Source: a virus. Taken from it: a DNA stretch of 42,210 nucleotides. Every line of letters starts with the position of its first letter. Position 1 is the stretch's first letter. The notes beneath the pieces were generated by a model. That model saw nothing but the letters and a program-made list of their open reading frames with translations. It searched no databases and was not told the DNA's origin. The position numbers and the translations under genes were made by a program. The stretch lies in the IMG/VR virus record IMGVR_UViG_3300007351_000027; one strand, 5' to 3'. Below, in pieces: positions 8,817 through 42,210 of this stretch.

Positions 8817-8880
8817 TGCGAACATCCGGCTGGATTTCATGTGAAGAAACAACGCATTGCGTAGTGCAGGATGTGGCCGA

Positions 8881-8898
8881 TGCTACCGGATTGCTACC
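8881..8898 (+). repeat. Tandem direct repeat TGCTACC x2 (candidate arm-type sites, P' arm)
   Basis: TGCTACCggatTGCTACC, with 11-bp phasing and the same orientation and core as the 8701-8721 pair. Confidence 0.5.
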
Positions 8899-8993
8899 AC
8901 CAAGTTGACAATCTGCCGAGTCTCGGCTACGCTAGTGAGCGCAAGCAGGCTATTCGGATTCGGGTCGCTGCCCTCCGTCTGACCCTGCTTGTG

Positions 8994-9033
8994 GGAGCTT
9001 CAAGTGCGTGCAGGCGCTTGGGGCTCCTTTTTT
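8994..9033 (+). terminator. Rho-independent terminator (plus strand), convergent with the int stop codon
   Basis: 14-bp stem GGAGCTTCAAGTGC/GCGCTTGGGGCTCC (three G-U pairs), 6-nt loop, then TTTTTT (9028-9033). Confidence 0.7.
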
Positions 9034-10102
9034 ATTGGGCAGCATCGAGTCGGTCTACGGCTCCGTGATTGATCGTAGGCAGCCATTTCCCGTACGTGTC
9101 TGACGTAAGCTGGATACTGGCGTGTCCCAATTGCCGTTGGACGTACGTAATGGCCTCCCCCTGCTGTAGGAGCAGGGAGGCGTAGGTATGCCGTAGGCAA
9201 TGCGGCGAGAAGTGCTGAGGGAGCCCAGCCGCCTTCAGGATGCGGGACATGGCCCAGCGGACAAATCCGTCTCGCAAGGTCGCTCCGGCTGAATTAGGGA
9301 ACACCCACGGTACACCAGCGTTCCGCTGATTCTGCCAGTCCGACAGCACGGCAGTCAAATGCATCGACATATCGACTGTTCGACCATGCCCAGACTTGGG
9401 CAGCTGCAGCCGGCCTTTTGAGTAGGACCGAGAGACGCGGATCGTTCGATTCGCCAAGTCCAAGTCATCCCACTGCAGCGCCAGGGCCTCCCCGAGACGT
9501 AGCCCTGTGCCGGCCAGGAGGCAGAACAAAGGATACCAACGCTCGTGATTCTTGGCTTCCGTCAGGAACGTCTGCCGCTGTTGTGCTGTCATAGCCTTGA
9601 TTTGTTCTTGCCGCGTTGTGTGCGACGTAACGAGTCGAAGCTGACGCCCCAGCTTCTCAGCCGGATTAGCCGTCAGCAGACCGTCATCAACGGCTGCCCG
9701 CAGGACGGATCGGATTGTGGCGTGAATGCTTCGGACGGTGCTTTTGGAGAGTCCTGCAGAAAGTTTATCGACCAGCAGGGACTTAATGCGGCCTCGGTGG
9801 ATCTGGCGAACGGGTTGTGTGCCAAAAGTGGGAAGGAGATGATCCCGCAGCAGCTGCTGGTAGTTATCAGCAGTGCTCTCTCGGACAGTGCTTTTGATGG
9901 TAGCCAACCAGTGCTGCGTGTATGTGTCCAGGCTGATATTCGCTGCCACGACCGGCTGCGACCACTGGCGAGTCTTCGGACGCTCGATATCAAGGAAGTC
10001 TTCGGCTTCTTGTTTGGTGTCAAACGTCTTCCAGCGACGGAGACCAGCTCCGTCACGCCAATCTGCGACCCATTTCCCTCTTCGTTTCCGTACGCACGCC
10101 AT
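9032..10102 (-). CDS. int: Tyrosine recombinase / phage integrase
   Basis: 356 aa. TGLRLGEALAL (Arg I), HCLRHTYAS (H-x-x-R) and LGHASIQLTSDTYGKW (catalytic Tyr region). The N-terminus is SAM-like. Confidence 0.92.
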   Translation of the reverse strand: MACVRKRRGKWVADWRDGAGLRRWKTFDTKQEAEDFLDIERPKTRQWSQPVVAANISLDTYTQHWLATIKSTVRESTADNYQQLLRDHLLPTFGTQPVRQIHRGRIKSLLVDKLSAGLSKSTVRSIHATIRSVLRAAVDDGLLTANPAEKLGRQLRLVTSHTTRQEQIKAMTAQQRQTFLTEAKNHERWYPLFCLLAGTGLRLGEALALQWDDLDLANRTIRVSRSYSKGRLQLPKSGHGRTVDMSMHLTAVLSDWQNQRNAGVPWVFPNSAGATLRDGFVRWAMSRILKAAGLPQHFSPHCLRHTYASLLLQQGEAITYVQRQLGHASIQLTSDTYGKWLPTINHGAVDRLDAAQ

Positions 10103-15643: not shown

Positions 15644-16349
15644 CCAGCACTCTCAGTGGATAGCGTCCTTCCGGTTTGCAATTTTCGTAGAACGGGCACA
15701 CAGACTGCACTTCACCCTTGTAGATGTTCGCGCACATCCAATCCGGGCACAGGTCTACTTTCGTCGGCTGCTTCGTGTTAACCGCATCGAGCAGCCTATC
15801 TTTCTCCGCAACCAATGCATCCCGGATGTCTTTACGCTCTTGCGCCGTTAACTCGATGCGCCACGACACGATCTCAAGCGTTGAAGGCTTGGAGCCGTCC
15901 CAGCGTCTGCCTGAATTGGTGTAGAGCACGACCACATGGCCGATTGGAGCATCTTCCATAGCCATGTACGCCGTAATCTGATCCACGTACCGGGGCTCGC
16001 ATTCCTCCGGCACAGTGTACTTGCGGGAAGTCTTTAGCTCTGTAGACTCACCGTCAGGCGGGCGTAAGTCTTGCGTACCGACCACTCCACAATGCTTAAC
16101 CTTCTGCTCTGCATACTCAATGCCGCACACATGTTGAAACAGAAGATGCCACGCCTCACCAGCCGCAAAAAGGCCCACCATTTCGTCAGTGACACGTTCC
16201 CCGAGTAGTCGCACCCAATAAGCTTTCCGTGGTGCCAAAAGCTCAGATACATGGACTTCATCAGGTTTCAGCTCCCTCGGCTTACTGAACGCTTCTTTGA
16301 CGAATGACCAGATTTCGTTAGCTCTCGCATTATCTTTTGTAATCCTCAC
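15594..16349 (-). CDS. PD-(D/E)XK exonuclease, Cas4/RecB-like with C-terminal Cys cluster
   Basis: GTQDL...STELKTS (D...E-x-K) and CPDWMC...CPFYENC (four Cys, Fe-S type arrangement). Confidence 0.65.
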   Translation of the reverse strand: MRITKDNARANEIWSFVKEAFSKPRELKPDEVHVSELLAPRKAYWVRLLGERVTDEMVGLFAAGEAWHLLFQHVCGIEYAEQKVKHCGVVGTQDLRPPDGESTELKTSRKYTVPEECEPRYVDQITAYMAMEDAPIGHVVVLYTNSGRRWDGSKPSTLEIVSWRIELTAQERKDIRDALVAEKDRLLDAVNTKQPTKVDLCPDWMCANIYKGEVQSVCPFYENCKPEGRYPLRVLVGEPKPKGASRGRKKA

Positions 16350-16861
16350 GCAACATTCTTTCTCTTGTTCTCTGACTGCTGACGGTTAGTTGCCCATCGG
16401 CAGTTGCTAGGCTCGTAATTGCCATTGACATTAACGCGATCTAGCGTCATACCCGCAGGACGTTCGCCCATGTCTGCCAGGAAGTTTTCAAACTGCAACC
16501 AACGCTCACAGACCTTAATGCCTCTACCTCCGTAATGATGCCAGTCGTGGCGTTTAGCTTGTGTACAACGAGCCACCATACTGCGCCACGATTGATACGT
16601 TGAAGAGGGAGAAGATCCCTGCAAACTATGCCCATGCTTAAATAGCTTACGTCTACCTTCTTTAGTTGCGACCAACCTTCTGCGACACCCACATGATTTT
16701 ATTTCTCCTGATTTGATGTGAGTATACCTCGCGATAAACCACTCTCCGCAGTGACACTCGCACCACCATTGGCTGTGTCCAGAATTAGCAATAGAATGCT
16801 GGCGAACAAGGAGAGAGTTGTCCTTAATTACCTTCATTCCCGCCGCCCTGCTCGCTGCCAT
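16346..16861 (-). CDS. HNH-like (degenerate beta-beta-alpha-Me) endonuclease-family protein, paralogue 1
   Basis: WWCECHCGE...SCGC Zn-cluster and YGGRGIKVCERWLQFENFLADMGERPAGMTLDRVNVNGNYEPSNCRWAT. Clear paralogue of 17405-17887 and 30884-31348. Confidence 0.65.
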   Translation of the reverse strand: MAASRAAGMKVIKDNSLLVRQHSIANSGHSQWWCECHCGEWFIARYTHIKSGEIKSCGCRRRLVATKEGRRKLFKHGHSLQGSSPSSTYQSWRSMVARCTQAKRHDWHHYGGRGIKVCERWLQFENFLADMGERPAGMTLDRVNVNGNYEPSNCRWATNRQQSENKRKNVA

Positions 16862-17404: not shown

Positions 17405-17887
17405 TTATCCCTCCTTACTTGTCTTTCGTTTGTTATACGCCTGTTGACTCCATGTTGCCCATCGGCAATTGCCAGGCTCATAATTGCCATCTACATTAAT
17501 TCTATCTATCGTCATGCCTACAGACGGCTTTTCGCCCATATCTGCTAAGAAGTTTTCAAACAACATCCAGCGTTCGCAGACACTAATCCCCCTCCCACCG
17601 TAATGAATATAAGCATCATGCTTAGGATTAAAACAGCGTTGCTTCATCGCATACCAAGAAAGGTATGTGCTCCCTTTCCCTTTTTGGCTTTGACCATGCT
17701 TAAAACTTCTAGTAGCTGTAGCTTCCCGATGTAAGCATCCACAAGATTTAGTGTTGCCTGACTGCAAGTTGTACTCAAGAACAATCAGGATCTCACCGCA
17801 CGAACACTCACACCAATAACGAGCTTGCCATCGTTTGCTGGATTTAGCTCGGTTAATGACAGTCAGCCTGCCAAAATTAGCCTTCAC
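17405..17887 (-). CDS. HNH-like endonuclease-family protein, paralogue 2
   Basis: YWCECSCGE...SCGC and YGGRGISVCERWMLFENFLADMGEKPSVGMTIDRINVDGNYEPGNCRWAT. GTG start. Confidence 0.65.
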   Translation of the reverse strand: MKANFGRLTVINRAKSSKRWQARYWCECSCGEILIVLEYNLQSGNTKSCGCLHREATATRSFKHGQSQKGKGSTYLSWYAMKQRCFNPKHDAYIHYGGRGISVCERWMLFENFLADMGEKPSVGMTIDRINVDGNYEPGNCRWATWSQQAYNKRKTSKEG

Positions 17888-19433: not shown

Positions 19434-19462
19434 ACTATAACAGCTTTATTCCCACCTATCCA
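19434..19462 (-). promoter_or_regulatory. Candidate extended -10 promoter overlapping the polA stop
   Basis: Minus strand reads TGGATA (19457-19462), 17 nt, TGtTATAGT (-10 at 19434-19439). The -35 is weak. Confidence 0.3.
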
Positions 19463-21839
19463 GCACTGCTACCTCTGCTGTAATCGGCACTGCCATATCC
19501 ACGCCAAAAGCTGCCTTGATCAGCCCATTCAAATTACCAGCTACCCGCTCAACAGCTGCAAGTGCAATTGCGTCATCCTTCGGAGCCACATCATCTATAA
19601 ACGCATCGTGTCCCTCTTGCACCATCAGCGGAAGCCCCCGATGCCACACAAGCCGCTTATACTCGTCCTGCACTGCCAGCCGGTAAATCACCAGAATCGA
19701 ATGCCCGGCTGACTGCACGATACGATTGATCGCCTCTCGCTCGATGGCCGGCGTAATTGCCTGATCAAACTCCCACCACTGGCCAAACGGATTCTCGATC
19801 TCACCAGTCGAGTGTAACTTCTGCAGCACATGCTCTTTCCAGCGGCTAACGCCGGGGTAGAGATTCTGCACCTTATGGTACAGCCTCCAATCCTCCTTCC
19901 CCGCTACTGCAAATAGCTTCTCTGGCCCAGCTCCGTACACGCCGGCAAAGTTAAACGTCTTGCCGATCTTCCGTTGCTCCGGCGTCACTTGCTCAGGCCG
20001 GATGCCAAATACACGAGCAGCAGCGTCCCTATGGATATCGACACCATCAATAAAAAGCTGACAAAGTTTCGGATCTGCACTGAGATGGGAAATGATGCGG
20101 TACTCGATGGCAGACAAGTCGCTGACAAGCAACTTACCGCCGATATAACGAGAAGTAAATAGTCCACGTAGCGGTTTCTCCACATTCTGCATGTTCGGCT
20201 GCTTACATCGCAGCCTAGTTGTCTCTGCCCCTGACACCTGGTAGTGAGCATGAATCAGTCCGTCACCGTCAGGATGCCAAATCTTGCGCCGGTACTCGTA
20301 GCAATTCGTATTCAGCTTCTTATGCGTGCTCTTGACTTCGAGCAGCAACTTCGCAGCCGGACACTTGTCTTGGATCTCGCCCAACACCTGCTCATTTGTC
20401 GCATCAACATCAAAGCCCATCGCATGAAATAGCGCCTTCATCTGCTGAGGGCTATCGACGTTAATCCCTGCTTCCTCAAATCGAGCCACAAAGTCAGCCT
20501 GCTTCTTCGGCAACTTCGACGGATCTTTCGACTTGATTTGCGCCGTGGCGATATGTAAGAAGTCAGCCTTGTAACGCCAAGCCAGCTCCTGCAGCTCCTT
20601 CTCTTTTACTGCTGCATACGTCTCCAGCTCTGCGATCTTGTTATCAAGTGCTGCCGGATCAACCGCAATACCGTTCAGCTCCGTGTCGCGGATTGCCGGC
20701 AGATAATCCATTGCCAGCTGAAAGCTTGATGACGGATGCTCTTCCTTCTGCTGATCCCTGAATAGGGCATAGTGATACATCAAATCCAGCGTCAAGTACG
20801 GTTCAATCAGCTCCGGCATTTGACTGGATAAGATGCCTCGATCCCACTCCGTATGCACCTTGGCTTCATATGCTGAGGCTCCGTACATTGACTTTGCCAG
20901 CCACTTCAAGCCAACACTATGACGACTCCGCTTCGGCTGCGTCGTATGCCACAAATACGTGTCGTGAAACGTGGCTTTTGGAAACTCGATGCCTTCAGCT
21001 CCGAGGAACACCACGTCGCCCTTGATGTTGTGGCCATAGATAACGCCAGTATATTCAGCAGCCAACTTCTTCAGCAGGGAATAGAAGCCGGGATGATCGG
21101 ACGGATGTAACTCAGGAATCAAACAGAACCACGTTCCGTCCGTCAGCCCGAGCATGGCTAGCTTGCCGCCCTCGTAAGGATAGACAAACTGCTCATCCCG
21201 ATCACGAGCATCTTTAGGCACGTCGATTTCAATATCCAAACCAATGGCCGGCTGTTGAAACAGCTCGATTAAATACTGATCCATAGGCAGCCCCGGCACA
21301 ATAAACTTTCGATCTGGTAACTCATACTGAAATGGGCGCAGCACCGTCTCTAGTACTACTCGTGCGTGCTCTCGCTTCTCATCAAACTGCCATTGGCTGA
21401 TGCCATACGTATGCTGAACAAGGTGCTGATCCTTCATGCGGGCTTTGTACAGCAGCCCACCCTTGCCTTCCAGCTTCCGCACGCCGCCATAGAGCGAGCT
21501 AACAGCTTCCTCGCCAATCGTCACAATCGGCAGAGTCGGGTATTGCAGTAGCAGCGGGTTGACGTACGCTTCCCGGCATTCTTTGATCACCGGCAAATCC
21601 GGCTTGTACCGATTGCGGCAATTCGCCGCAGCTACGATCACCGGAGTAATGTCAAGCCCGTCACACACCTGCTGCAACGTGTCCAGCTCATTCTGCGTCA
21701 ACGGCTGCGTCACCAACAGAATGATGTTAGGGGCCATCTCAGGGTCATCAAACGGCTCAACAAACTGCTTCTCCTTCTGTACACCCCAAGGGCAACTTGC
21801 ACAGCCGGGAATCTTCAATGGCTTCTTAGCCTTTGACAC
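19446..21839 (-). CDS. Family-A DNA polymerase with 3'-5' exonuclease domain and an N-terminal UDG-fold-like domain
   Basis: Exo motifs GLDIEID, HNIKGDVVFL, YLTLDLMY. Pol motifs DLSAIEYR (A), RKIGKTFNFAGVYG (B), GHDAF (C). The N-terminal ~190 aa (GCASCPW...IILLVTQP...IVTIGEEA) has a family-4 UDG-like layout (tentative). Confidence 0.9.
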   Translation of the reverse strand: MSKAKKPLKIPGCASCPWGVQKEKQFVEPFDDPEMAPNIILLVTQPLTQNELDTLQQVCDGLDITPVIVAAANCRNRYKPDLPVIKECREAYVNPLLLQYPTLPIVTIGEEAVSSLYGGVRKLEGKGGLLYKARMKDQHLVQHTYGISQWQFDEKREHARVVLETVLRPFQYELPDRKFIVPGLPMDQYLIELFQQPAIGLDIEIDVPKDARDRDEQFVYPYEGGKLAMLGLTDGTWFCLIPELHPSDHPGFYSLLKKLAAEYTGVIYGHNIKGDVVFLGAEGIEFPKATFHDTYLWHTTQPKRSRHSVGLKWLAKSMYGASAYEAKVHTEWDRGILSSQMPELIEPYLTLDLMYHYALFRDQQKEEHPSSSFQLAMDYLPAIRDTELNGIAVDPAALDNKIAELETYAAVKEKELQELAWRYKADFLHIATAQIKSKDPSKLPKKQADFVARFEEAGINVDSPQQMKALFHAMGFDVDATNEQVLGEIQDKCPAAKLLLEVKSTHKKLNTNCYEYRRKIWHPDGDGLIHAHYQVSGAETTRLRCKQPNMQNVEKPLRGLFTSRYIGGKLLVSDLSAIEYRIISHLSADPKLCQLFIDGVDIHRDAAARVFGIRPEQVTPEQRKIGKTFNFAGVYGAGPEKLFAVAGKEDWRLYHKVQNLYPGVSRWKEHVLQKLHSTGEIENPFGQWWEFDQAITPAIEREAINRIVQSAGHSILVIYRLAVQDEYKRLVWHRGLPLMVQEGHDAFIDDVAPKDDAIALAAVERVAGNLNGLIKAAFGVDMAVPITAEVAVLDRWE

Positions 21840-22986
21840 ACAGCACCTGTCGCAATTGCGTGACTATTTTGACTAGATCCTCTTGCTGCTGAATAACTGA
21901 TTCAATCGGTTTGTAAGCACCAGGAATCTCGTCAAGCACAGCAGCATCCTTACGGCACTCGACCCCATGGGTCTGGGCTGCCAGATCGTCGATGGTGAAC
22001 GATCGCTTGGCCTGCCCACGAGACATCTTTCGCCCGGCCCCATGCGACGCAGAGCAGAACGACTCGGGATTGCCGAGACCGCGCACAATGAACGACGAGG
22101 TACCCATTGAGCCCGGGATAATGCCGAATTCGCCTTCTCGGGCGCTGATCGCACCCTTCCGGGTGACGAAGACTTCTTCCCCGAAATGGACTTCCTCCGA
22201 GACATAGTTGTGGTGGCACTGAATCGGCGGATCGAAGTTAACCATCAGGCCATGAAACGCCGCGCTGACCACGGCCATAAGACGCGCCAGCATCACCGAC
22301 CGGTTCAGGTACGCATACCGCTGTGCCCACAGCAGATCATGGCGGTACGCGGCCATTTCTGGCGTGCCAGCCAAGAACACGGCGAGGTCTCGATCGGGCA
22401 GGTCATGATTGTGTGCGAGCGTCTTGGCAGTCTCAATATGGATCTCGGCCAGCGTTTTGCCGATGTTGCGTGACCCCGAGTGCAGCATGATCCACACCGT
22501 GTCGTGGGTATCCAGGCATACCTCAATGAAGTGATTCCCGCCCCCGAGCGTCCCGAGCTGGCGCCGTGCCCGGCCTTCCAGATCCTGGACCTCACGCGCT
22601 AAGCACTCGAAGGTCTCAAACAGGTCCGCCCCGCTATGGACGGGATCGGGATGGTCACTGAACCCTACCGGAATGGTCGCCTCTATCTCAGCGCGCAAGG
22701 CAGAGAGGGTATCTGGAAGCTGTGCGGCCGTCAGGGAGGTCTTCACCGCCGCCATGCCGCATCCAATGTCCACGCCCACGGCTGCGGGGCTTATGGCGTT
22801 CTTCATCGCAATGACGGAGCCAACGGTAGCACCCTTCCCGTAATGCACATCTGGCATGACTGCAACGTGGTGATACGCCCACGGCAACGCAGCGATGTTC
22901 TTCAACTGATCAAGTGCCTGTAACTCCACTTCATACACAGGAGCCCACAGCTTAATCGGCACTACCTTTCCTTGAAGAGTATCCAT
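21826..22986 (-). CDS. rtcB: RtcB 3'-phosphate/5'-hydroxyl RNA ligase
   Basis: 386 aa carrying the RtcB signature blocks VDIGCGM, GGGNHFIE, LHSGSRNIG, CHHNY and SASHGAGR. SD TAGGAGAAA. Overlaps the polA start by 14 nt. Confidence 0.93.
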   Translation of the reverse strand: MDTLQGKVVPIKLWAPVYEVELQALDQLKNIAALPWAYHHVAVMPDVHYGKGATVGSVIAMKNAISPAAVGVDIGCGMAAVKTSLTAAQLPDTLSALRAEIEATIPVGFSDHPDPVHSGADLFETFECLAREVQDLEGRARRQLGTLGGGNHFIEVCLDTHDTVWIMLHSGSRNIGKTLAEIHIETAKTLAHNHDLPDRDLAVFLAGTPEMAAYRHDLLWAQRYAYLNRSVMLARLMAVVSAAFHGLMVNFDPPIQCHHNYVSEEVHFGEEVFVTRKGAISAREGEFGIIPGSMGTSSFIVRGLGNPESFCSASHGAGRKMSRGQAKRSFTIDDLAAQTHGVECRKDAAVLDEIPGAYKPIESVIQQQEDLVKIVTQLRQVLCVKG

Positions 22987-23003
22987 CCGTTTTTCTCCTA
23001 AAA

Positions 23004-23080
23004 TGGTCTGCGAGGCAGGATTTGAACCTGCGGCCTCCTGGTTCCAAGCCAGGTCGTCTACCAGACTGACTTACTCGCAG
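23004..23080 (-). tRNA. tRNA-Pro: tRNA-Pro (anticodon UGG), CCA-encoded, 77 nt
   Basis: Hand-folded: acceptor CTGCGAG/CTCGCAG, anticodon stem CCTGG/CCAGG with loop CTTGGAA, T-arm GCAGG-TTCAAAT-CCTGC, A73, CCA. C1:G72 and A73 are as in bacterial tRNA-Pro. D-stem has one A-G mismatch, and position 37 is A. Confidence 0.85.
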
Positions 23081-23845
23081 TTAACTAAGCATCTCCTGCA
23101 CCTGCGCTTCGCTAAAATCCGTGGGGTCTTTCCCGTCTACGCTATAAATCTTTACCGTCTTTGCTACGGTGGACAACTGCTCCGCAATCTCCACCGAGCC
23201 GGCAAAGCCGGGCAAATCTCCGTCCAGCGCAATCACCACATCCCGGCCTGCCAATTGAGCATTGAGACTACCGTTGTAGTGCCTACCACACAAGCCCACG
23301 CTATCAGCCCATTGCGAAATGTAGGCTGCGTCTCCGATGCCTTCACAGAGTACGACCTTGCCGTACTTCTTCGGCCCCAGCGCCCAGCTGATCCAATGGT
23401 GCCGAGGGCCGGGCGGATTAAGATAGGGGCGAGGGGCGTCACCCATTGCCCGAGCCACGAACCATTTGCACTGTTGCTGCTCGTCGTAGACGGGAAGAAT
23501 CAGGTACCAACAATCACCAATGAACCGTTCAAGCTCCGGATACGTAGCAGATAACACATCAGGTAAGCACCAACCAATTCTATGCTGCAGTATCGTCGTC
23601 ATCGGAACAGGCCACGGTTGCAGATTTGCCCACTCGTCATCAGCCACAAACTGTTTTGTGGGTGGCAGCCCTCGCCACTCTCCAGCCACCCGCATCGAGT
23701 GCTCTGATTCCTCTGCTTCCCACACCGAGCCGCAACCAAAGCACTTCATCAGCTTATTACCGTCTCGGCTAAACTCTGACCAATAGCTCTCTCTACGGCA
23801 GCTACACGTCACGTTCCACCTGTCCTTCAATCTGCATGGTGTCAA
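23081..23845 (-). CDS. DNA primase (zinc finger plus Toprim domain)
   Basis: N-terminal CSC...CFGCG, Toprim VVLCEGIGDAAY and IALDGDLPG. Stop codon abuts tRNA nucleotide 1. Start overlaps the helicase end, so the exact start is uncertain. Confidence 0.8.
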   Translation of the reverse strand: MTPCRLKDRWNVTCSCRRESYWSEFSRDGNKLMKCFGCGSVWEAEESEHSMRVAGEWRGLPPTKQFVADDEWANLQPWPVPMTTILQHRIGWCLPDVLSATYPELERFIGDCWYLILPVYDEQQQCKWFVARAMGDAPRPYLNPPGPRHHWISWALGPKKYGKVVLCEGIGDAAYISQWADSVGLCGRHYNGSLNAQLAGRDVVIALDGDLPGFAGSVEIAEQLSTVAKTVKIYSVDGKDPTDFSEAQVQEMLS

Positions 23846-24701
23846 AATTACATTCCCATGCGCTATACCGATGCTTAATCCTCCGGCCCTTCCCCTTGCC
23901 CAGCTCCAGCTGGTAGTACGTGTCGTGGTTCTCTACCAGCAACAGCATCACGTCTGCGTGAGACGATTTGCCGACTCGACTACGATACAACCGCGTCATG
24001 GCCGAGCGTCGAAAGCTACTCCGCTGCCGGCCTTGAGCATCGGGCGGATAATTCAGCTGCGTGCCGGTAATCACCGTAGTCTGGTACTTCTTCGCCAGGC
24101 CACGCAGGGCTTTTGTGGTGTAGCTCACATCCAGCCAATCGGCCTCATGCCCGCTACCAGTAATCAGGTCCAAGTAATCCACTACCACGAAGTCAGGCGG
24201 CGCTGTCTTCGCCAGCTCGCCAATCGTGGCGTCTATCGACGCAATACTAAAGCTCTGATCCTGAACATCGGCCACGTACAAATTCTCCGGCCGCTGATCC
24301 AGCGTCGAAGCCTTCTCATAGATTTCCAGTACGTCACCTACCAGATCCTCGCCATTGAAATGCAGGATGGTGGCTCCCTGATTCAGGTAACAGCTCGCCG
24401 TGAAGACCATGAAGTGTGTCTTCCCCTGGTGAGGCACTCCGCCGATGATCATTAGCTCTTCTTGGCGCAGACCACCACCAAGAATTTCGTCGTACCAGTC
24501 TAGGCCGGTACTGAGGAACGGCTTTTTAAGACCTTCAGGAGGGAGTTCATTAACGCGATATATAGGAATAGCCGCGTGAGTACTGTCTTCCCCGATTGCC
24601 TGCTCAAGCGTAGCGATTGCACGGCGTACGTCGGCCTCTGATCCGCTCGTCCAAGCTTGCTGTATGTGTTTAGCTCCGTCACTCAGTTTCCCTTTGTCCA
24701 C
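23802..24701 (-). CDS. DnaB-like / RecA-fold replicative helicase
   Basis: GLDWYDEILGGGL...IIGGVPHQGKTHF (Walker A) and DFVVVDYLDLI (Walker B). GTG start. Confidence 0.8.
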   Translation of the reverse strand: MDKGKLSDGAKHIQQAWTSGSEADVRRAIATLEQAIGEDSTHAAIPIYRVNELPPEGLKKPFLSTGLDWYDEILGGGLRQEELMIIGGVPHQGKTHFMVFTASCYLNQGATILHFNGEDLVGDVLEIYEKASTLDQRPENLYVADVQDQSFSIASIDATIGELAKTAPPDFVVVDYLDLITGSGHEADWLDVSYTTKALRGLAKKYQTTVITGTQLNYPPDAQGRQRSSFRRSAMTRLYRSRVGKSSHADVMLLLVENHDTYYQLELGKGKGRRIKHRYSAWECNFDTMQIEGQVERDV

Positions 24702-29275: not shown

Positions 29276-29304
29276 ATTCTAGCGTCCCGCTGTCACAGTG
29301 TCAA
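29276..29304 (-). promoter_or_regulatory. Strong sigma70-type promoter (leftward early operon, PL-like)
   Basis: Minus strand reads TTGACA (29299-29304), 17 nt, TAGAAT (29276-29281). The spacer contains TGTGACAG. Confidence 0.65.
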
Positions 29305-29326
29305 GGGAAAATATGTAGGCTGTTAC

Positions 29327-29350
29327 TGTCATAGCTGACAATAGTTGTCA
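29327..29350. promoter_or_regulatory. Operator-like cluster of alternating TGTCA/TGACA half-sites
   Basis: TGTCA-tagc-TGACA-atagt-TGTCA, just upstream of the -35 of the leftward promoter and overlapping the stop of the 67-aa gene. Confidence 0.45.
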
Positions 29351-29532
29351 GTGCAGGCAATACAGACCTGAGAGCCGGAACGAAATGAAGCACGGAGCTT
29401 AACCTTGCCGCATTGCTGGCAAGTCTTCGGTTGTCGTTCCTGATGCCGTTTGTTCCAGTCTTCTGGAACACGTAAGGACTCTGTAATACGTTGCTTAATG
29501 TCGTGAATGGCATCCACGTGCTTTTGTCGCAT
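29329..29532 (-). CDS. 67-aa zinc-ribbon protein in the cI-equivalent position (immunity-regulator candidate)
   Basis: Start set at ATG 29532 (MRQKHVD...) with GGGAG 8 nt upstream. C-terminal CQQCG...CIAC. Lies between divergent strong promoters. Confidence 0.5.
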   Translation of the reverse strand: MRQKHVDAIHDIKQRITESLRVPEDWNKRHQERQPKTCQQCGKVKLRASFRSGSQVCIACTDNYCQL

Positions 29533-29560
29533 CTTTTTTACTCCCACTGTCATTTTTTGC

Positions 29561-29590
29561 TTGACAAATGACTGTCAACTGTGCTATAGT
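29561..29590 (+). promoter_or_regulatory. Strong sigma70-type extended -10 promoter (rightward, PR-like)
   Basis: TTGACA (29561-66), 18 nt, TGcTATAGT (-10 at 29585-90). TTGACA-aatgac-TGTCAA inverted repeat covers the -35 and spacer. The palindrome GCTATAGT gives a -10-like TATAGC on the other strand. Confidence 0.65.
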
Positions 29591-29720
29591 AGGTCTTGAC
29601 AGGCATGCTACCCTAGCGAAGTCGCGCACGAGCAGCGAATACGGCGCTGCCACACAAGCAGACGGCGCGCAAGGCGCCGAAGCAGCGCGAAGCAATCGCT
29701 CCAAAGCAGCTGATAGGTGC

Positions 29721-29741
29721 GTCCTGTCATACTGACAGGAC
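29721..29741. repeat. Perfect 9-bp inverted repeat GTCCTGTCA-tac-TGACAGGAC
   Basis: Read directly. Contains the TGTCA/TGACA half-sites. No U-tract follows, so it is not a canonical terminator. Confidence 0.8.
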
Positions 29742-29768
29742 CATTGAGTGGCAGCTTATATTGCAGTA

Positions 29769-29811
29769 ACTACATCTAGTGCTATAAGCTACTGTAAGCA
29801 CTAGCTGTAGT
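29769..29811. repeat. Long imperfect hairpin/inverted repeat (ACTACAtCTAGTGCT ... AGCACTAGcTGTAGT)
   Basis: 8-bp perfect core CTAGTGCT/AGCACTAG extended by ACTACA/TGTAGT around a single mismatch. 13-nt loop. Confidence 0.7.
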
Positions 29812-29837
29812 ATTCGCAGATAATAGCAAGACCCCCG

Positions 29838-29854
29838 AATGACACTGTGTCATT
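29838..29854. repeat. Perfect palindrome AATGACAC-t-GTGTCATT
   Basis: Read directly. 8-bp arms and a 1-nt centre. Operator-like. Confidence 0.8.
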
Positions 29855-29900
29855 AGTAGCAACATGCAGGCAGGCGCAAGTGGTAGCAGAATAGTAGCAA

Positions 29901-30066
29901 TCCGGCAGTAAAAGCACTGCAAGCTATTGTATTTATTGCATATATAAGCTATATAGCTGCAATTCCAATATCTGCACACAGAGAAATCCGGCAGAAAATC
30001 AACAGCTTGAACCCCGTCCGGCAGAAATGACGGGGGATAGAGCCCCCAGCTCCCCCCGGCAAAAGC
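29901..30066 (+). repeat. Iteron-like direct repeats TCCGGCAG(t/a)AAA flanking an AT-rich core (candidate ori or pac element)
   Basis: Copies at 29901-29914, 29987-30000 and 30017-30030, plus a degenerate one at 30055-30066. AT-rich 29924-29972 contains the palindrome AGCTATATAGCT (29947-29958). TAGTAGCAA occurs at 29854 and 29893. Confidence 0.5.
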
Positions 30067-30145
30067 TGTAGTAGTCCTCCCCTTACCATTTTTGCCGTTT
30101 TTGACAGTATGTTGCGAAATTGTGACAGGCGCGTGCATTTTGTGC

Positions 30146-30175
30146 TTGACAGTGGGGGTTGAAGTGTGATATAAT
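30146..30175 (+). promoter_or_regulatory. Strong sigma70-type extended -10 promoter (late/structural operon)
   Basis: TTGACA (30146-51), 18 nt, TGaTATAAT (-10 at 30170-75). Preceded by further TGACAG copies at 30102 and 30123. Confidence 0.7.
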
Positions 30176-30245
30176 GCTGTTACAAAGTGGCAAAGTGTCA
30201 CTGACGGTGCCCTCGACCGGATCGGGGAGAGTGGAGAGTAAGGGA

Positions 30246-30845
30246 GTGGCAACACAGGCAGAGCGGTTAGCGCGTCTTCGGAAGCGGTACGGGACGCGGA
30301 ATGAGAGTTTTGAGGCTGATTTGGTTTCAATGCTCGTGGGGCGGAATTTTTCGACAGCGGCGCAGTCGGTGACAGACACGACTCGTGTCATGCTGACGGG
30401 CTCAGACATCTTGGTGCCCAAATTTGTGGCAGGGGCGCAGTTTCGTTGGCGGATCGCCATGACGAAGACAGCGGCTGGGACGGCTGCCAGTACGTTCGAC
30501 ATTGGCGTGGGTAAGACAGCTTCAGCGGCTGGATTGACGGCGCGGGTGTCGTTTACGAAGCCGGCTGGCACGGCGGCGGCGGACGAGGCGTTGATTGAAA
30601 TCGTGTGTACGTGCCGTAGTGTGGGCGCGTCCGGGGTGCTCGTGGGTCAGTTTCAGTTGACGCACAATTTGGCTTCGACTGGTCATGCGACGATTCCCTG
30701 TGTAGTGGTGAATACGGTGTCGTCTGGTTTCGACAATGCCGGCTATGATAATTACGTCGGTGTTATGGTGACGGCTGGGGCATCAGATAGCTTGACGTTT
30801 GAGTTAGTGCAGGCTGAAGCGGTATACGTCAGCACGGTGGGGTAA
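30246..30845 (+). CDS. Hypothetical beta-rich protein; first gene of the late operon
   Basis: The track ORF starts inside the promoter. GTG 30246 is preferred (GGAGAG 7 nt upstream). Ala/Thr/Gly/Val-rich, with no motif recognised. Confidence 0.5.
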   Translation: MATQAERLARLRKRYGTRNESFEADLVSMLVGRNFSTAAQSVTDTTRVMLTGSDILVPKFVAGAQFRWRIAMTKTAAGTAASTFDIGVGKTASAAGLTARVSFTKPAGTAAADEALIEIVCTCRSVGASGVLVGQFQLTHNLASTGHATIPCVVVNTVSSGFDNAGYDNYVGVMVTAGASDSLTFELVQAEAVYVSTVG

Positions 30846-30883: not shown

Positions 30884-31348
30884 ATGAAGGGGTTGCACGG
30901 ACAGCAGTTTGACAGACTATTTGTGATGAGGCCATGGTCAGTTAGACACGGCTCTATGGCTACGTGGTTGTGTGAGTGCTGTTGCGGCGAATTTACAATA
31001 GCTTATCAGAAGCACTTGCTGAAAGGTGTTACGCGGTCGTGCGGGTGTCTAAGGCGACAAACAAAGAAAAAGCACGGCCATAGTCCTGACGGCCACAAAA
31101 GCCGCACATATAATTCGTGGTCTGCGATGATTCAGCGTTGTACAAATGCTCAGCATATCAGTTTCGAGTATTATGGCCGTCGTGGTATTGCGGTGTGTGG
31201 GCGTTGGCAAGAATTTAAAAACTTTTTAGCTGACATGGGTGTAAGACCGGTTGGCAAGACGCTTGATCGCATTGATGTAGACGGCAACTATGAGCCGGGT
31301 AATTGTCGATGGGCAACGCCGGCAGAACAGATTGATAACCAGCGGTAA
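30884..31348 (+). CDS. HNH-like endonuclease-family protein, paralogue 3 (packaging-associated position)
   Basis: WLCECCCGE...SCGC and YGRRGIAVCGRWQEFKNFLADMGVRPVGKTLDRIDVDGNYEPGNCRWAT. Immediately upstream of the terminase genes. Confidence 0.65.
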   Translation: MKGLHGQQFDRLFVMRPWSVRHGSMATWLCECCCGEFTIAYQKHLLKGVTRSCGCLRRQTKKKHGHSPDGHKSRTYNSWSAMIQRCTNAQHISFEYYGRRGIAVCGRWQEFKNFLADMGVRPVGKTLDRIDVDGNYEPGNCRWATPAEQIDNQR

Positions 31349-31356
31349 AGTGCTGT

Positions 31357-32196
31357 ATGGCATTAAGTGTGGAGGTGGTTTGCCCGGAATGTAAGCAAGT
31401 CCGGCGCATAGGCCGACAGCAGGCCCGAAACCGGAAGTCAGACGTATGTGCGGCCTGCTACCGGAAGAATCCATACAAGGGCGGGGCGGTCAAGAAAGAC
31501 CGGAAAGCGGAGAAGGCCACTGTCAACGAACGGACGCTCGATGCGCTGGCGTTGGCAGCGATGGGGTTGCCCACGGCTGAAGCGGTCGCGCAGGCCGGTA
31601 TTACGTTTACGCAGTTTGAGGAAGCGAAGCAGCAAGTCGAACGGCTGAAGCCAATGGCTGAGGCCGTGAAGACGCACCAGGCGGATAAGCTGTACATCTT
31701 GGCACAGGTCTTGTTGGACTCGATTGATTCCGGCGACCTGGCCGAGATGGACGCGAAAGAGAAGATCCAGGCGGCGGCGAAAGCGATTGATACAGCCCGC
31801 ATCCTGGAGGGCAAGCCGACTGAGATTGTGGCGCAGTTTAAGGCCGTCATGGAGAAATACCACGTCAAGGTCGAAACGACGAACGGAGCAGCAGCTTCAG
31901 GTGAGCATCAACGCCAGGGTGGAGAAGAGGCAGGAGTAGTCGATGGTGAAGCGGTGGTTGTCGAAGAAGGCGATGGTGCTGGGGGTGGTACTGGGGCTGC
32001 TGCTCCCGATGTCTTGCAACAGTACAGCGGAAGCGGAGAAGCCGGTCCAGATTCGGTTGGTGGATCAGGAGAATCCAGCGATGCAGGCGCTGATGGCGCA
32101 GGTGCTGTATCAGTATCACGTCAGGTTTGGCCGTTCTCGCGTGAATGCGTCGTTCCCGGAGGATCTGCTGATCGTCAAGTGGCAGGGGAGCGATAG
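31357..32196 (+). CDS. terS: Terminase small subunit-like protein (Zn ribbon plus HTH plus helical core) with a low-complexity tail
   Basis: CPEC...CAAC, HTH-like LALAAMGLPTAEAVAQAGITFTQF, helical oligomerisation-type region. Position upstream of TerL. The last ~85 aa are Gly/Ala/Glu/Ser-rich and overlap the next gene. Confidence 0.5.
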   Translation: MALSVEVVCPECKQVRRIGRQQARNRKSDVCAACYRKNPYKGGAVKKDRKAEKATVNERTLDALALAAMGLPTAEAVAQAGITFTQFEEAKQQVERLKPMAEAVKTHQADKLYILAQVLLDSIDSGDLAEMDAKEKIQAAAKAIDTARILEGKPTEIVAQFKAVMEKYHVKVETTNGAAASGEHQRQGGEEAGVVDGEAVVVEEGDGAGGGTGAAAPDVLQQYSGSGEAGPDSVGGSGESSDAGADGAGAVSVSRQVWPFSRECVVPGGSADRQVAGER

Positions 32197-32678: not shown

Positions 32679-34067
32679 GTGCAGTTTGACTCCGCGAGAT
32701 TCTTCAAGGATCTCGGGGTAGCCACCGATGACTTTCAAGATCGGATCTGTCAGTCTCCGGCTCGGTTTATCCTCAATCGCGCTGCTCGTCGAACGGGCAA
32801 AAGCTTTGTGGCTGCGAAGTGGGCTGTGGCCCATCGACGCGGCATTCTTGTGCCTAACACCCGAGGCTGGATTGTCGGCCCGACATATGACTTGGCGGAA
32901 AAAGAGTTTCGCTACGTGGTCGAGATTCTGGAGCGGGCGCACAAGAAAGTGGGGCTGCCGAGGCCCGACGTGCTGCACCATAACGCCAAGATGGGTGACC
33001 TGTATATCAGGATGCCTTGGGGCGCGGAAGTCATCGGCAAGTCGGCAGAGCGTCCGCTGAGTTTGGTCGGAGAAGAGAACGACTGGATCATCATGTCGGA
33101 GGCGGCGCAGCAGAAGGAAGATACCTGGTATCGGTATCTGCGTCCGACTCTTTCATCGAGAATGGGAAGTGTGATCTTCCCGACGACGCCTGATATTTCC
33201 GGGGCGTGGCTCTACGAGTTAGAGCTAAAAATGCCGGAGATGAATGCAGACGCCCGGAAAGAAGAATGGGCGTTGTACCACCGTGCGGCATGGGATACGC
33301 CGCACTACAACAAAGAGGAAATTGAGGCAGCTCGACGCGAGCTGTCTGAAGACGCCTTCCTGGAGCAATTCGGCGGGGAGTGGACGTTTCACGAGGGCCG
33401 CGTGTTCAAGGCGTATAGCCCTCTGGTGCATCTTGTTGATCCGTTCCCGCTGCCGTCGAGTTGGAAATACTGGAGTGGAGTTGATTTCGGGCATCGAGAC
33501 GCCACGGCGGTGTTGTGGGCCGGGCAGTCGAGTGCCGGCGACTTTTATATCTTTCGGGAATACTACGCGAGTAATCGCCCTACGGAAGTCCACACGGCGG
33601 TGGTCAAGGCCACGGATCGGCCTCTTCCGAGGGTTATCAGAGTGTCGGACCATCATGCGCTCGGAAAGCAGTTGGCCCATGATTGGCGGACATACGGCGT
33701 CCCGACACTTGATGCCGGCGTAGACCGGAAGTCGCGGAGGGATCGCGTGATGGCGATGTTGGAGCCCCGCGACTATCACTCGCCCTACCATGTGCAGATG
33801 CGCGGGGGTGGCGTAGCGAAGTATCCCCGTTTGTACATCTTCCGTGGTCGATGTCCCAACTTGATCCGCGAGATACAGCTGCTGAAGTGGAAAGAAGGTA
33901 CGCGGCAGGAAGGGACATACGGCGATACGGTCGGAGACGATCACGCCGTTGATGCGTTGGAATACATGATCTATTACGCGACTCGCGGGCGGAAGTATCG
34001 GAAGCCGGCCAGTGAGTACGCGACACCAGGACGGCGGGCTCCGGTGTCGAGCCTGACAGGGTATTAA
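32679..34067 (+). CDS. terL: Terminase large subunit
   Basis: 462 aa. ATPase motifs AARRTGKSF (Walker A-like) and DWIIMSEAA (Walker B-like). Nuclease-domain acidic motifs VDFGHRDATAV and GDDHAVDALEY. Confidence 0.88.
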   Translation: MQFDSARFFKDLGVATDDFQDRICQSPARFILNRAARRTGKSFVAAKWAVAHRRGILVPNTRGWIVGPTYDLAEKEFRYVVEILERAHKKVGLPRPDVLHHNAKMGDLYIRMPWGAEVIGKSAERPLSLVGEENDWIIMSEAAQQKEDTWYRYLRPTLSSRMGSVIFPTTPDISGAWLYELELKMPEMNADARKEEWALYHRAAWDTPHYNKEEIEAARRELSEDAFLEQFGGEWTFHEGRVFKAYSPLVHLVDPFPLPSSWKYWSGVDFGHRDATAVLWAGQSSAGDFYIFREYYASNRPTEVHTAVVKATDRPLPRVIRVSDHHALGKQLAHDWRTYGVPTLDAGVDRKSRRDRVMAMLEPRDYHSPYHVQMRGGGVAKYPRLYIFRGRCPNLIREIQLLKWKEGTRQEGTYGDTVGDDHAVDALEYMIYYATRGRKYRKPASEYATPGRRAPVSSLTGY

Positions 34068-34079
34068 CACAGGGATGTA

Positions 34080-35765
34080 ATGGCTGAGTATAACGGAGAT
34101 CCGCAAAAGGTTGTTGAATACGTTGTCGATGCGTACGAACGGTGGAAAGAGCAGCGACTAAGTAAAGAAGCGGTGTGGCAGGAGTGCTTGTACAACTATT
34201 TGTGCTGGGTTGATCCTGCGAAGTATCAGGGGTGGCCGTGGCGCAGTAAGGTGTGCGACACGATGAGCCAAGAGATTGCGGATGCCATTGGCTCGGCGCT
34301 GGTGACGCAGATGCTCCCTCTGGATGAAGACTATTTCTCCATCCAGCATCTCTCTCCTGGCGGTGAAGCGTATCGAGAGATCGTCAAGGAAGAGCTGAAG
34401 CGCCGGCTTGTGCAGGCGAATTTCTCTGAGCGATTGCTGCCAGTGGCTTCACAGCTTGCGGTGCTTGGCAATACAGCATTTACGATGCCGTGGCGTCGGA
34501 AGACGCGGATGCGCCGGATGCGTCGTGGACGCAATATCGAGCGCGTTGAGGAAGTGAAGTACGACAACTTTGCGTTTGAGCCGCTGGACGTGCTTGACGT
34601 GGTGGTTGATCCGCACGCAGTTGTCTCGCCCAGCTCTATGATGATCTGGCGAGTGCAGACGAGCCTCGATGAGCTGAAGCAGCATAAAGAGCTGTACAAA
34701 AATCTTGATCAGCTCGAAGCGACGATTGGCCTTCCAGATGATCGAAGCCGGTCAGACAAGGTTAGTCGAGCAGCAATCTTTGGTTTCGAGTACAAGCCGG
34801 AAGACCAATTCGACATTGAGCTGTTGGTGTGCTACGGCGACATCGTGATTGATGGCGAGATGCACCAGGACTCGCTTGCGGTGATCGGCAATCGCGGGGT
34901 ATGCCTGCGTTTTGAAGAGAATCCGTACTTCGGTGGGCGTCCGTGTTTTCTCGGCACGTATAGCAGCCTCTGGTTCACGCCGTATGGCCGTGGGCCATTG
35001 GAGGCGTTGCGAGGGCAACAGGCGCTTATCAATACGTTCTTGAATCAGAAGGCAGACATCCTCAACCTGATCATCATGGGCGCCTTTGCCTATGTAGACG
35101 ACGGGACGATTGAGCCGTCTGATTTGGTGTTGGAGCCCGGCAAGGGCATTCCGGTTGGTGACATCAACAACATCAAGCCACTGACGCCGCCTGGCAATCC
35201 TGCGTTGGCCTATCAGGAAATTGCGATGCTGCGCGATAGAGGCGATCAGTCGTCAGGAGCGAGCGATTACATGCGGGGTGTCTTCCCCGGAGGGCGGAAG
35301 ACAGCGTATGAGACGCAGCAAATTGTGGCAGGGTCGTCTGCGCGGTTGAATGCGACACTCCGTCATTTGGGCGAGAGCATGATTGAGCCTGCGCTGAATT
35401 TTGCTCTGGAGTCTATTCAGCAATTTACGTACGGGCGCAACCCGGAGATTCCTGACGAGGCGTTAGAGGAACGGTACTACGCGCAGTATACCGGAGCGCA
35501 GACGGCCATTCTTCGAGAGGAACAGAAGCAGGCATTGCGAGAATTCCTGGCAGTAATGGCGCAAGATCCAGAGATGTCGGCAGCGTTGAATCGACGGGAA
35601 GTAGCTGAGGAAGTACGGCGGCTGTCTCGAATCACGAATCGCCGGCTGATCCTGACAGAAGAACAGATGAAGGCGAAGCAGGCAATGGATATGGCGTTGG
35701 CTGAGGCGCAGCGGTTTATGAATGCGCCGGCAGCGAATCCGATGGCTGAGGCTCAGAATGCGTAA
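34080..35765 (+). CDS. Portal protein
   Basis: 561 aa, immediately downstream of TerL. Size and position are typical. No enzyme motif. Confidence 0.75.
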   Translation: MAEYNGDPQKVVEYVVDAYERWKEQRLSKEAVWQECLYNYLCWVDPAKYQGWPWRSKVCDTMSQEIADAIGSALVTQMLPLDEDYFSIQHLSPGGEAYREIVKEELKRRLVQANFSERLLPVASQLAVLGNTAFTMPWRRKTRMRRMRRGRNIERVEEVKYDNFAFEPLDVLDVVVDPHAVVSPSSMMIWRVQTSLDELKQHKELYKNLDQLEATIGLPDDRSRSDKVSRAAIFGFEYKPEDQFDIELLVCYGDIVIDGEMHQDSLAVIGNRGVCLRFEENPYFGGRPCFLGTYSSLWFTPYGRGPLEALRGQQALINTFLNQKADILNLIIMGAFAYVDDGTIEPSDLVLEPGKGIPVGDINNIKPLTPPGNPALAYQEIAMLRDRGDQSSGASDYMRGVFPGGRKTAYETQQIVAGSSARLNATLRHLGESMIEPALNFALESIQQFTYGRNPEIPDEALEERYYAQYTGAQTAILREEQKQALREFLAVMAQDPEMSAALNRREVAEEVRRLSRITNRRLILTEEQMKAKQAMDMALAEAQRFMNAPAANPMAEAQNA

Positions 35766-41822: not shown

Positions 41823-42210
41823 GTGACGTTCGATGAATATGGACTCGCAGAGATCCGGTGCATGGATTGCGGCGTGCCAATGAAACGCCGGGTGCTACGA
41901 AAACAGGCCATTGTAGACGAAAAGAAGAACCTGCTTGGATATGTCACTGACGAAGCTGGAAACCGAGTGGTCGTTCCAATCTTGGTACGGACTCGTCACT
42001 TTCACGAGCAGAAAGTCTCAACCGGATCAAACTCGTTCGCAAGAATCTTCCGCTGCAAGGAATGCAGTAGTGTACCGGTGGACAAGGATAAGTTGACGCG
42101 GCAAATCAAGCTGGCATGGGTTGAGGAAATGACGTTTGCAGGGAAGTCGCTATCAGATAAGAAGCGGCATTTGAAGGCGAATGAGCGTATGGCGGTAAGG
42201 GGAATCCTGT
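41823..42210 (+). CDS. Zinc-ribbon protein upstream of the tail fibre (runs off the window and finishes at 99-101 after circularisation)
   Basis: Hand-translated from GTG 41823: (V)TFDEYGLAEIRCMDCGVPMKRR...FRCKECSSVPVDKD...MAVRGIL. Missing from the ORF track because it has no in-window stop. Confidence 0.55.
   Translation, partial: MTFDEYGLAEIRCMDCGVPMKRRVLRKQAIVDEKKNLLGYVTDEAGNRVVVPILVRTRHFHEQKVSTGSNSFARIFRCKECSSVPVDKDKLTRQIKLAWVEEMTFAGKSLSDKKRHLKANERMAVRGIL
42112..42210. repeat. Terminal exact duplicate of 1-99
   Basis: See feature 1-99. Confidence 0.9.

Follow-up and report, generated by a model that had tools for sequence, protein, structure and literature searches.

A conserved, promoter-driven non-coding module at the early/late junction of an uncultivated podovirus-like phage: a candidate transcription-activated replication origin

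What function is served by the region between positions 29,591 and 30,145 of the virus record IMGVR_UViG_3300007351_000027, a 42,210-nucleotide (nt) stretch of DNA (referred to in its entirety as the window) in which a strong promoter reads into some 550 nt without a recognisable gene? A preliminary description of the sequence offered three roles for this region: a replication origin, a packaging (pac) site or a long regulatory RNA. Judged from its sequence, the region is genuine and conserved, a non-coding control module driven by a promoter and placed where the early and late genes meet; of the roles offered, those which depend upon transcription are favoured, although the choice has been narrowed only partly. 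The reading to which we give most weight, with a probability of a little under 0.4, is that of a transcription-activated replication origin combined with a late-leader control element, a ranking which rests upon anatomy, conservation and analogy.

The module lies within 29554-30245, the sole large gene-free stretch of the genome. It is flanked by the early/replication arm, which occupies approximately 9.0-29.55 kb of the minus strand (20.5 kb), and by the late/structural arm, which runs on the plus strand from 30.15 kb across the contig ends to 8.84 kb (20.8 kb). As the two arms are of nearly equal length, the junction lies opposite the point at which they converge, and it also coincides with the minimum of the cumulative GC skew. 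Entry into the module is from P1 (29561-29590, plus strand), a predicted sigma-70 promoter of the form TTGACA-18-TATAGT with an extended -10 TG and 11/12 matches, from which transcription would start near 29597. The leftward early promoter, PL (TTGACA-17-TAGAAT), is found on the minus strand at 29276-29304. A second sigma-70 promoter, P2 (TTGACA-18-TATAAT, extended -10, 12/12 matches), stands at 30146-30175 on the plus strand and serves the late operon; approximately 550 nt separate P1 and P2, the surroundings of which are alike (71% identity over a 38-nt context).

The only open reading frames (ORFs) found in the region are a plus-strand frame of 55 amino acids (aa), which starts upstream of the transcription start, and low-complexity frames on the minus strand (29608-29730, 29782-30330, 29801-29917 and 29949-30089). 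None of those within the region starts credibly, and among relatives the reading of the long minus-strand frames is not preserved. When the region was compared in six frames with five homologous regions, matches were found equally in all frames on both strands and the frames were broken in close relatives, thus indicating that conservation acts at the DNA level and that the region is non-coding. The possibility of a hidden small gene was rejected on the same grounds. The first impression of a promoter-driven, ORF-free and highly organised region, with minus-strand ORFs of low complexity, is therefore upheld.

All of the elements listed in the preliminary description were found again, with some coordinates shifted by 1-3 nt. 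A GC-rich 5' domain (29620-29715, plus strand) carries four copies of AGCAG between 29631 and 29710 and the mini-hairpin H1 (GGCGC-GCAAG-GCGCC, 29664-29678). It is followed by a perfect inverted repeat of 9 bp (29721-29729/29733-29741), which holds the operator-like CTGTCATACTGACAG, and by a 15-bp stem (29769-29783/29797-29811), 93% complementary, with a loop of 13 nt. A cluster of (A/G)TAGCA motifs then occupies 29824-29900 on the plus strand and includes both the 8-bp palindrome AATGACAC-T-GTGTCATT (29838-29854) and the direct repeat TAGTAGCAA, present at 29854-29862 and 29892-29900. Next is the AT-rich block (29921-29975), with its palindrome AGCTATATAGCT at 29947-29958. The 40-mer which begins at 29925 is the most AT-rich of the genome (GC 0.23), and the block as a whole is among the three least stable 60-mers, with a stability value approximately 3.4 standard deviations above the genome mean and repeats on both flanks; it is thus a candidate DNA-unwinding element.

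Three boxes of the form TCCGGCAG(A/T)AA, all in the same orientation on the plus strand, start at 29901, 29987 and 30017 (span 29901-30027). The sequence TCCGGCAGAAA occurs exactly at 29987 and 30017 and nowhere else in the genome, the copy at 29901 departing from it at one position; the third box is presented in the loop of a hairpin, CCCCGTC/GACGGGG (30012-30018/30029-30035). These boxes had been described as three or four iterons. The three same-orientation copies and the hairpin stand, but the fourth, near 30055, is degenerate (CCCGGCAAAAG) and the boxes are not classical iterons of 17-22 bp. Set against an iteron-type theta origin, the region has the AT block and its repeats are short (TAGCA hexamers and the 11-nt CCGGCA box, three times). 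The module is completed by a G/C module (30029-30102, plus strand) comprised of GACGGGGG-ATAGAG-CCCCC, a C6 run, AAAGCT, CCTCCCC and a T-rich tract that includes CGGCAAAA/TTTTGCCG followed by TTTTT.

If this organisation mattered to the phage it would be expected to persist in related genomes, and it does. Relatives were reached through close members of the family of the first late protein and through the closest terminase homologue, giving five related metagenomic phages: L001, L247 and L004, together with the partial L243 and L002/L003. The comparative set is small: ten lineages from metagenomes, six of them close and four distant. The preliminary description would have been weakened had the repeats and stems been absent from related phages; instead the module is kept in all five, with its elements in the same order. 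P1 is back-to-back with a leftward promoter in L001 and L247, as well as in L004 as read from the sequence. Then follow the GC-rich 5' domain with a hairpin, a TGTAGCA/TGCTACA cluster, a further hairpin and the AT-rich block; two to four CCGGCA boxes with a GTGTC/GACAC hairpin, GACGGGGG-loop-CCCCC and a further G or C run; and, finally, AAAGCT, a C-rich CCCCTT segment, the T-rich tract and P2.

The individual parts are recognisable in the same way. The TAGCA cluster of the window has its homologue in the TGTAGCA/TGCTACA cluster, strongly conserved, of L001, L247, L243 and L002 and in that of the distant relatives L497 and L499, and the AT block (ATATATGCATAATAATGC) occupies the same position in L243, L247, L001 and L002. 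Two or three CCGGCA(A/G/T)AA boxes are found in L243, L247, L001 and L004, one of those in L243 lying in the loop of a different stem, CCCCT/AGGGG, and at the position of the 9-bp inverted repeat L001 and L247 have ATAGAGCGTGACAG(C/G)TCTAT. P1 is conserved in L001 (5221-5249) and L247 (4709-4737), whilst L004 keeps the extended -10 only (GTGCTATAGT). P1 is thus retained in 4/4 clade members which reach far enough, although P2, present in all members, already serves the late genes. The distance from P1 to P2 is 549, 553, 577 or 608 nt and that from the transcription start to the G-run 429-473 nt. L247 lacks the 199-aa gene which heads the late operon of the window and nevertheless keeps the whole module, which is therefore independent of that gene.

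A nhmmer profile of the 3' block matched only the six clade members among approximately 500 fetched loci; a search of GTDB genomes for further relatives found none; and the first-late-gene family, searched in IMG/VR and metagenomes, yielded only distant members in which the gene lies within an operon without an upstream gap. Searches with 14- and 15-mer DNA patterns for further relatives were saturated by chance matches.

Does the module act as RNA or as DNA? The predicted fold of 29597-30105 gave z = -4.6 for the plus strand and -3.7 for the minus strand, with 0/100 shuffles as stable, and the pairing of some hairpins is maintained by compensatory change. The stem 5' of the AT block is GCACTCG-17-CGAGTGC in L001 (5559-5589) and GCGTTCG-17-CGAACGC in L247 (5072-5102), a difference of two compensatory pairs, and in L243 a different 7 bp (GTCCCGC/GCGGGAC) also encloses a 17-nt loop. 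H1 and the box-in-loop hairpin likewise keep their pairing with different stems, the equivalents of H1 being GCGGCGC/GCGCCGC in L001, GGCGTC/GACGCC in L247 and TCGC-GCAA-GCGA in L004. These changes support local hairpins in a single-stranded nucleic acid, of either strand. A single large folded RNA was not supported, RNAalifold covariation being seen in 0/5 pairs of the G5/C5 core, which is invariant, and in 3/33 pairs of the larger block. At gathering thresholds Rfam 15 matched only a tRNA-Pro elsewhere in the window, and with E up to 5 it gave one chance-level match (16.8 bits against a threshold of 41). Of the suggested long non-coding RNA, the stable fold and some compensated hairpins thus remain, whereas covariation is scarce and no known family was matched.

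A mechanism which accommodates these observations can be proposed. Host RNA polymerase would start at P1, back-to-back with PL, and make a hairpin-rich untranslated RNA of approximately 550 nt, carrying the TAGCA cluster, a hairpin, the AT block, the CCGGCA boxes and the G-run/C-run clamp. Either this RNA, or an R-loop left at the AT block and G-run, would open the DNA and provide the 3' end needed by a T7-like replisome, the components of which were recognised in protein family scans as a family A DNA polymerase (PolA, 19446-21839), a primase (23081-23845) and a DnaB-like helicase (23802-24701). The repeats may be bound by an accessory factor of the phage or the host. The older 3' element (G/C, CACCC and T-rich tract) would double as part of the late leader, where it would probably limit read-through from P1 into the late genes, which in this clade would be driven by their own promoter, P2. 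The firing of P1, the start of replication at this site and the role of each repeat are what we infer from the sequence. Family scans of the early proteins recognised no initiator, whether Rep-like or O-like, and no repressor or antiterminator.

A role which requires transcription is favoured over a pure double-stranded DNA packaging site because P1 has been retained and the P1-P2 length conserved, and because there are compensatory hairpins and a T7-like replisome without a recognised initiator. The packaging alternative, in which the region would be a pac site or terminal-repeat junction whose repeats bind the small terminase and whose G/C palindrome marks or neighbours the cut, is in our view unlikely, but it has a number of observations in its favour. 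The module is located just upstream of the packaging/structural operon, in which a putative small terminase of 279 aa (31357-32196), the large terminase (TerL, 32679-34067) and an SU10-type portal (34080-35765) are encoded, the latter two recognised in protein family scans. Distant relatives of the portal occur in the cyanopodoviruses PP, Pf-WMP3 and A-4L, and PP has the same two convergent arms, with 222-bp terminal repeats exactly at the equivalent junction. A C-run, often as C-run-ATAG-G-run, occurs 20-33 nt from the left physical end of T7 (L501, 26-38), T3 (L502, 26-33), PP (L246, 27-32), A-4L (L503, 27-32), Pf-WMP4 (L504, 20-25) and SP6 (L505, approximately 28-40), and T7 has CCCCCATAGGGGG together with the leftward host promoter A0 reading into its repeat. 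The short contigs L244 and L245 have independent starts no more than 8 nt apart, immediately past the G/C block, and an identical 13-mer, TTCCCCCCGTTGG, is shared by L254 (at approximately 5322) and the PP repeat.

Several of these points lose force on inspection. The breaks in the two contigs are explicable by the G/C homopolymers alone, and four long contigs read through the region unbroken; the 13-mer, a post-hoc match, has a chance of approximately 0.004 per comparison, and many comparisons were made. The analogy with T7 packaging is itself weak, since TerL does not belong to the T7-type gp19 family: BLASTP did not relate it to the PP terminase (E = 0.09), which is T7-type, the match to Terminase_6N is weak and the nearest solved relative is the TerL of P74-26. 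The self-complementary G5-N6-C5 would make a poor cohesive end, and changing hairpin stems and a dedicated promoter would not be expected of a double-stranded recognition site. The T7-type concatemer junction does resemble the window in its arrays of short repeats, its G/C-run palindrome (C5-ATA-G5) and the host promoter which reads in. It differs in the type of terminase and in the order of the G and C runs, which is reversed, and the phage of the window has an integrase and assembles as a circle.

A more serious challenge comes from the distant relatives (L254/L255, L248-L253, L497 and L499), whose TerL is 53-57% identical to that of the window. In these phages a gene-free stretch of 0.6-1.4 kb precedes the late genes, with a consensus promoter, TGnTATA(A/C)T, and a long untranslated leader, near the 3' end of which is a G-run/C-run motif: GGGGGAGGGGGAGCCCCCCA in L499, GGGGAGGGGAGCCCCCCA in L497, GGGGGTGGGGGTCCCCCCC in L248 and CCCCCCGTTGGGGG in L254. 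In 10/10 lineages examined, these four included, the motif is followed 45-52 nt downstream by (C)CACCC/TCCCC, and in L497 and L499 TAGCA/TGCTA clusters lie just before it. In L499, L254 and L248 the only strong promoter found precedes the motif by 50-240 nt and the first late gene by 270-390 nt, and in none of the three was a comparable second promoter found between the motif and that gene; in L497 a strong promoter precedes the motif by approximately 900 nt and the gene by approximately 1000 nt, with only a weak promoter candidate, as read from the sequence, between motif and gene. The leader of L497 (approximately 900 nt, 455-1260) is packed with perfect GC hairpins of 6-8 bp with loops of 4-6 nt, and it contains two tandem copies of a unit of approximately 62 nt (approximately 980-1110).

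Since it is shared with distant relatives which have a single promoter, the 3' third of the module (G5/C5, AAAGCT, the C-rich tract and the T-run) is, on this comparison, an ancient late-operon leader element, and it can no longer be regarded as specific to this region, as had been implied. P2, in turn, looks like an addition of the window clade, inserted between the G/C element and a 5' untranslated region (UTR) hairpin also present in L499. Iteron-like arrays and AT-rich tracts adjoin the same promoter in L248, L254 and L499; they are lineage-specific, and their position has been counted in favour of an origin.

There is the possibility, then, that the whole region is a late-operon leader RNA which controls late transcription and has no role in replication, a reading that we regard as nearly as probable as the origin, if on balance doubtful. 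The G-run, C-run, CACCC and U-rich tract would form alternative hairpins, terminator and anti-terminator, or a C-rich Rho-loading site, transcripts from the upstream promoter would halt until an early phage factor permits read-through, and the hairpins would stabilise the RNA or bind the factor. In keeping with this, the G/C motif lies within the late leader, downstream of a strong promoter, in L499, L254, L248 and L497; its spacing from CACCC is constant across the ten lineages; and in every clade member the C-rich segment gives way to a U-rich tract, with terminator-like hairpins predicted in the window (CGGCAAAA/UUUUGCCG followed by UUUUU), L001 and L002. Pairing of the G-run side with the CACCC side is slightly stronger within a lineage than across lineages (-17.4 versus -15.7 kcal/mol), a difference of borderline significance (permutation p = 0.054), and the window and L499 have in common a 5' UTR hairpin beside the ribosome-binding site. 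The terminator geometry, however, is not conserved: it differs or is absent among clade members, being plausible in 3/6, each built differently, and the G and C runs show invariance, not covariation. A leader role would also leave unexplained the TAGCA palindromes, the same-orientation CCGGCA boxes, the AT-richest block of the genome and the retention of P1, given that P2 feeds late transcripts downstream of the element.

Precedents for such leaders are the pR'-6S-tR' region of lambda with Q, and the nut/boxB leaders. The lambdoid pR'-qut-6S-tR' and nut/boxB arrangements resemble the window in their strong constitutive promoter, untranslated late leader and GC-clamped hairpin with a purine-rich loop. 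They are unlike it in that the window has no conserved intrinsic terminator, no Q- or N-like protein, and indeed no antiterminator-like protein of any kind, was recognised in the family scans, its leader is 3-5 times longer, and the element has a further promoter, P2, on its downstream side.

The 5' UTR of the late mRNA (30183-30245, plus strand) has two conserved hairpins before the ribosome-binding site. The first is CCAGC..GCTGG in L001 and L243, CGGC..GCCG in L002 and CAGCG..CGCTG in L499, and the next is CCCUCG..CGGGG; compensatory changes are found among the relatives, and these hairpins may control translation of the first late gene or stability of its RNA.

The origin reading should itself be considered with caution, and a number of observations count against it. 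The GC skew and the symmetry of the arms are confounded with the direction of transcription. The AT block lies far from the transcription start, and in L499 and L248 the AT-rich/iteron part is upstream of the promoter and hence untranscribed. There is a single G5 run with a complementary C5 directly after it, which favours a hairpin over a quadruplex of the CSB II kind; covariation is as sparse as described above; and mismatches in the stems (8 G:T against 13 A:C) give no sign of selection specific to a plus-strand RNA. Nor does the direction of the transcript, towards the late genes, agree with that in the best-matching origin, of the c2 type, in which it runs towards the early genes. Judged on these comparisons, a late-operon leader would be a more economical account of the TAGCA cluster and G/C module that occur group-wide. 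It may also be suggested that the G-run/C-run...CACCC motif and the TAGCA cluster upstream of it are a cis-element not described before, common to a broad group of uncultivated SU10-portal podophages, which in the manner of mitochondrial CSB II or ColE1 would stop or anchor host transcripts made from a consensus promoter for use as primers by a T7-like replisome, so that a single RNA would couple the start of replication to the late switch; this is a speculative suggestion, to which we attach a low probability.

The remaining role offered, that of a regulatory or decoy RNA, would have P1 produce a trans-acting molecule, which might confer immunity, as P4 CI and P1 c4 do, or soak up an RNA-binding protein. 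P1 does diverge from an early promoter with operator-like palindromes in between, the classical position of a temperate-phage repressor gene, and no protein repressor was recognised in the family scans; the short repeats on one strand (AGCAG, TAGCA and GGCAGAAA) could, moreover, titrate a protein. It is nevertheless a very improbable role. There is no discrete conserved terminator and no Rfam match, the TAGCA motifs occur in both orientations among relatives, and neither strand is favoured by the mismatches in stems. No stretch of 13 nt or more in the region is complementary to another part of the genome, the three 12-mers detected being at chance level, and an antisense target inside the phage was therefore rejected.

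The operator-like palindromes, of the TGACA-N5-TGTCA or CTGTCA-N3-4-TGACA type, deserve mention in their own right. They are found beside PL, where CTGTCATAGCTGACA and TGACAATAGTTGTCA (TGACA-N5-TGTCA type) lie within 29326-29350 (3 matches against 0.18 expected), as well as within the P1 transcript (29724-29738). In L247 the same type occurs twice inside the module (approximately 4973-5007) and also over the -35 element of P2 (5353-5369). They are probably sites for some phage regulator. In the phage of the window only, an ORF for a 74-aa zinc-ribbon protein (29329-29553, minus strand) lies between PL and P1; no promoter of its own was found for it, and its likely start, Met8, with the ribosome-binding site GGGAG, abuts P1.

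With regard to the genome as a whole, the window is a circular assembly with an exact terminal overlap of 99 nt (1-99 and 42112-42210), giving a true genome of 42,111 bp; the overlap lies inside a coding region and is an artefact of circularisation by the assembler. The phage is temperate, podovirus-like and uncultivated. In addition to the genes given above, exonucleases, a capsid protein, an RtcB ligase and a tRNA-Pro are encoded, and an integrase was recognised in protein family scans at 9032-10102 (minus strand). No close cultured phage exists for comparison: a DNA similarity search against 50,697 phage records returned zero matches, and the polymerase, terminase and portal have no more than approximately 30% identity to those of any deposited phage.

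The possibility that the region is the phage attachment site (attP) was rejected, as the integrase is 20 kb away, there is no tRNA-like core and a better candidate is available. This candidate attP is 8844-9032, beside the integrase where the late and early arms converge; it contains TGCTACCGGATTGCTAC and a strong terminator (15-pair stem, 8993-9028). It shares with 29894-29905 a 12-mer, the reverse complement of GTAGCAATCCGG, a match at chance level.

The first late gene (30246-30845, plus strand, GTG start) encodes 199 aa and belongs to an unannotated family of at least 591 clusters, without a Pfam or PHROG match. Elsewhere (loci L005-L048 and L169-L242) members of this family are mostly located within the structural operon, directly behind another gene, and solely in the window clade does the gene head an operon after a long gap. 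An HNH homing-type endonuclease (30884-31348), which is not found in L002, L004 or L247, separates the first late gene from the putative small terminase; its CxCxCGE N-terminus is shared by two early-arm ORFs (16346-16861 and 17405-17887). The RtcB RNA ligase adjoins the tRNA-Pro(UGG) gene (21826-23080, minus strand), and together they could serve to repair or replace tRNA attacked by host anticodon nucleases.

Origins, packaging signals and late switches are hardly ever annotated in uncultivated phages, although the rebooting, engineering and classification of a genome depend upon them. The candidate described here is bounded, with defined promoters, an AT-rich core and a short motif conserved at only approximately 55% terminase identity. 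Were it a leader, it would be a new RNA element controlling late genes. Were it an origin, the transcription-primed logic of c2, T7 and ColE1 would extend to temperate podoviruses which use the host polymerase, and its signature (a strong promoter, the TAGCA cluster, the G-run/C-run and CACCC) would locate the element in metagenomic contigs.

Among known systems the layout is closest to that of the c2-type origin of the genus Ceduovirus, in which non-coding DNA, flanked by two promoters and free of ORFs and ribosome-binding sites, separates early and late blocks of divergent direction, and the first promoter (PE1) makes a non-coding transcript, PE1-T, implicated in transcription-mediated initiation (PMC7150918). 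The origin types of c2 differ in sequence and have the same function (PMC7150918). The window likewise has, where its early and late arms diverge, a non-coding stretch with two tandem promoters of the host type at its edges; the first of them is followed by no ORF or ribosome-binding site and is predicted to give an untranslated RNA, and in both cases the layout is kept while the sequence varies between lineages. The differences are that both c2 promoters face the early genes, whereas those of the window face the late genes, and that c2 origins replicate plasmids without phage proteins, the window being known from sequence alone. There is no sequence similarity between the two, one being from a siphovirus of a Gram-positive host and the other from a podovirus-like phage.

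The second comparison is with origins at which a transcript primes DNA synthesis. The T7 primary origin, T4 ori(uvsY) and ori(34), and ColE1 RNA II are promoter-plus-unwinding-element or R-loop origins, and in T7 and T4 the AT element is tens of nt from the transcription start. The AT block of the window is approximately 330 nt from that start, and the window would use host polymerase where T7 uses a phage RNA polymerase. At the mitochondrial CSB II, transcription ends at a G-run and the transcripts prime a replisome of the T7 kind there (PMC3488243). CSB II is a pair of G-runs, like GGGGGAGGGGGAG of L499, L497 and L002, whereas the window has one G-run, which meets a complementary C-run at once. 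In layout, T7, T4, ColE1 and LSP-CSB II all resemble the window, more loosely than c2 does, in that a promoter reads into an AT-rich or G-run element where the transcript primes a family A polymerase. ColE1 RNA II is also, like the module, approximately 550 nt long and rich in hairpins, and T7 and mitochondria manage with a gp4-type primase-helicase and no initiator, a set similar to that which the window encodes.

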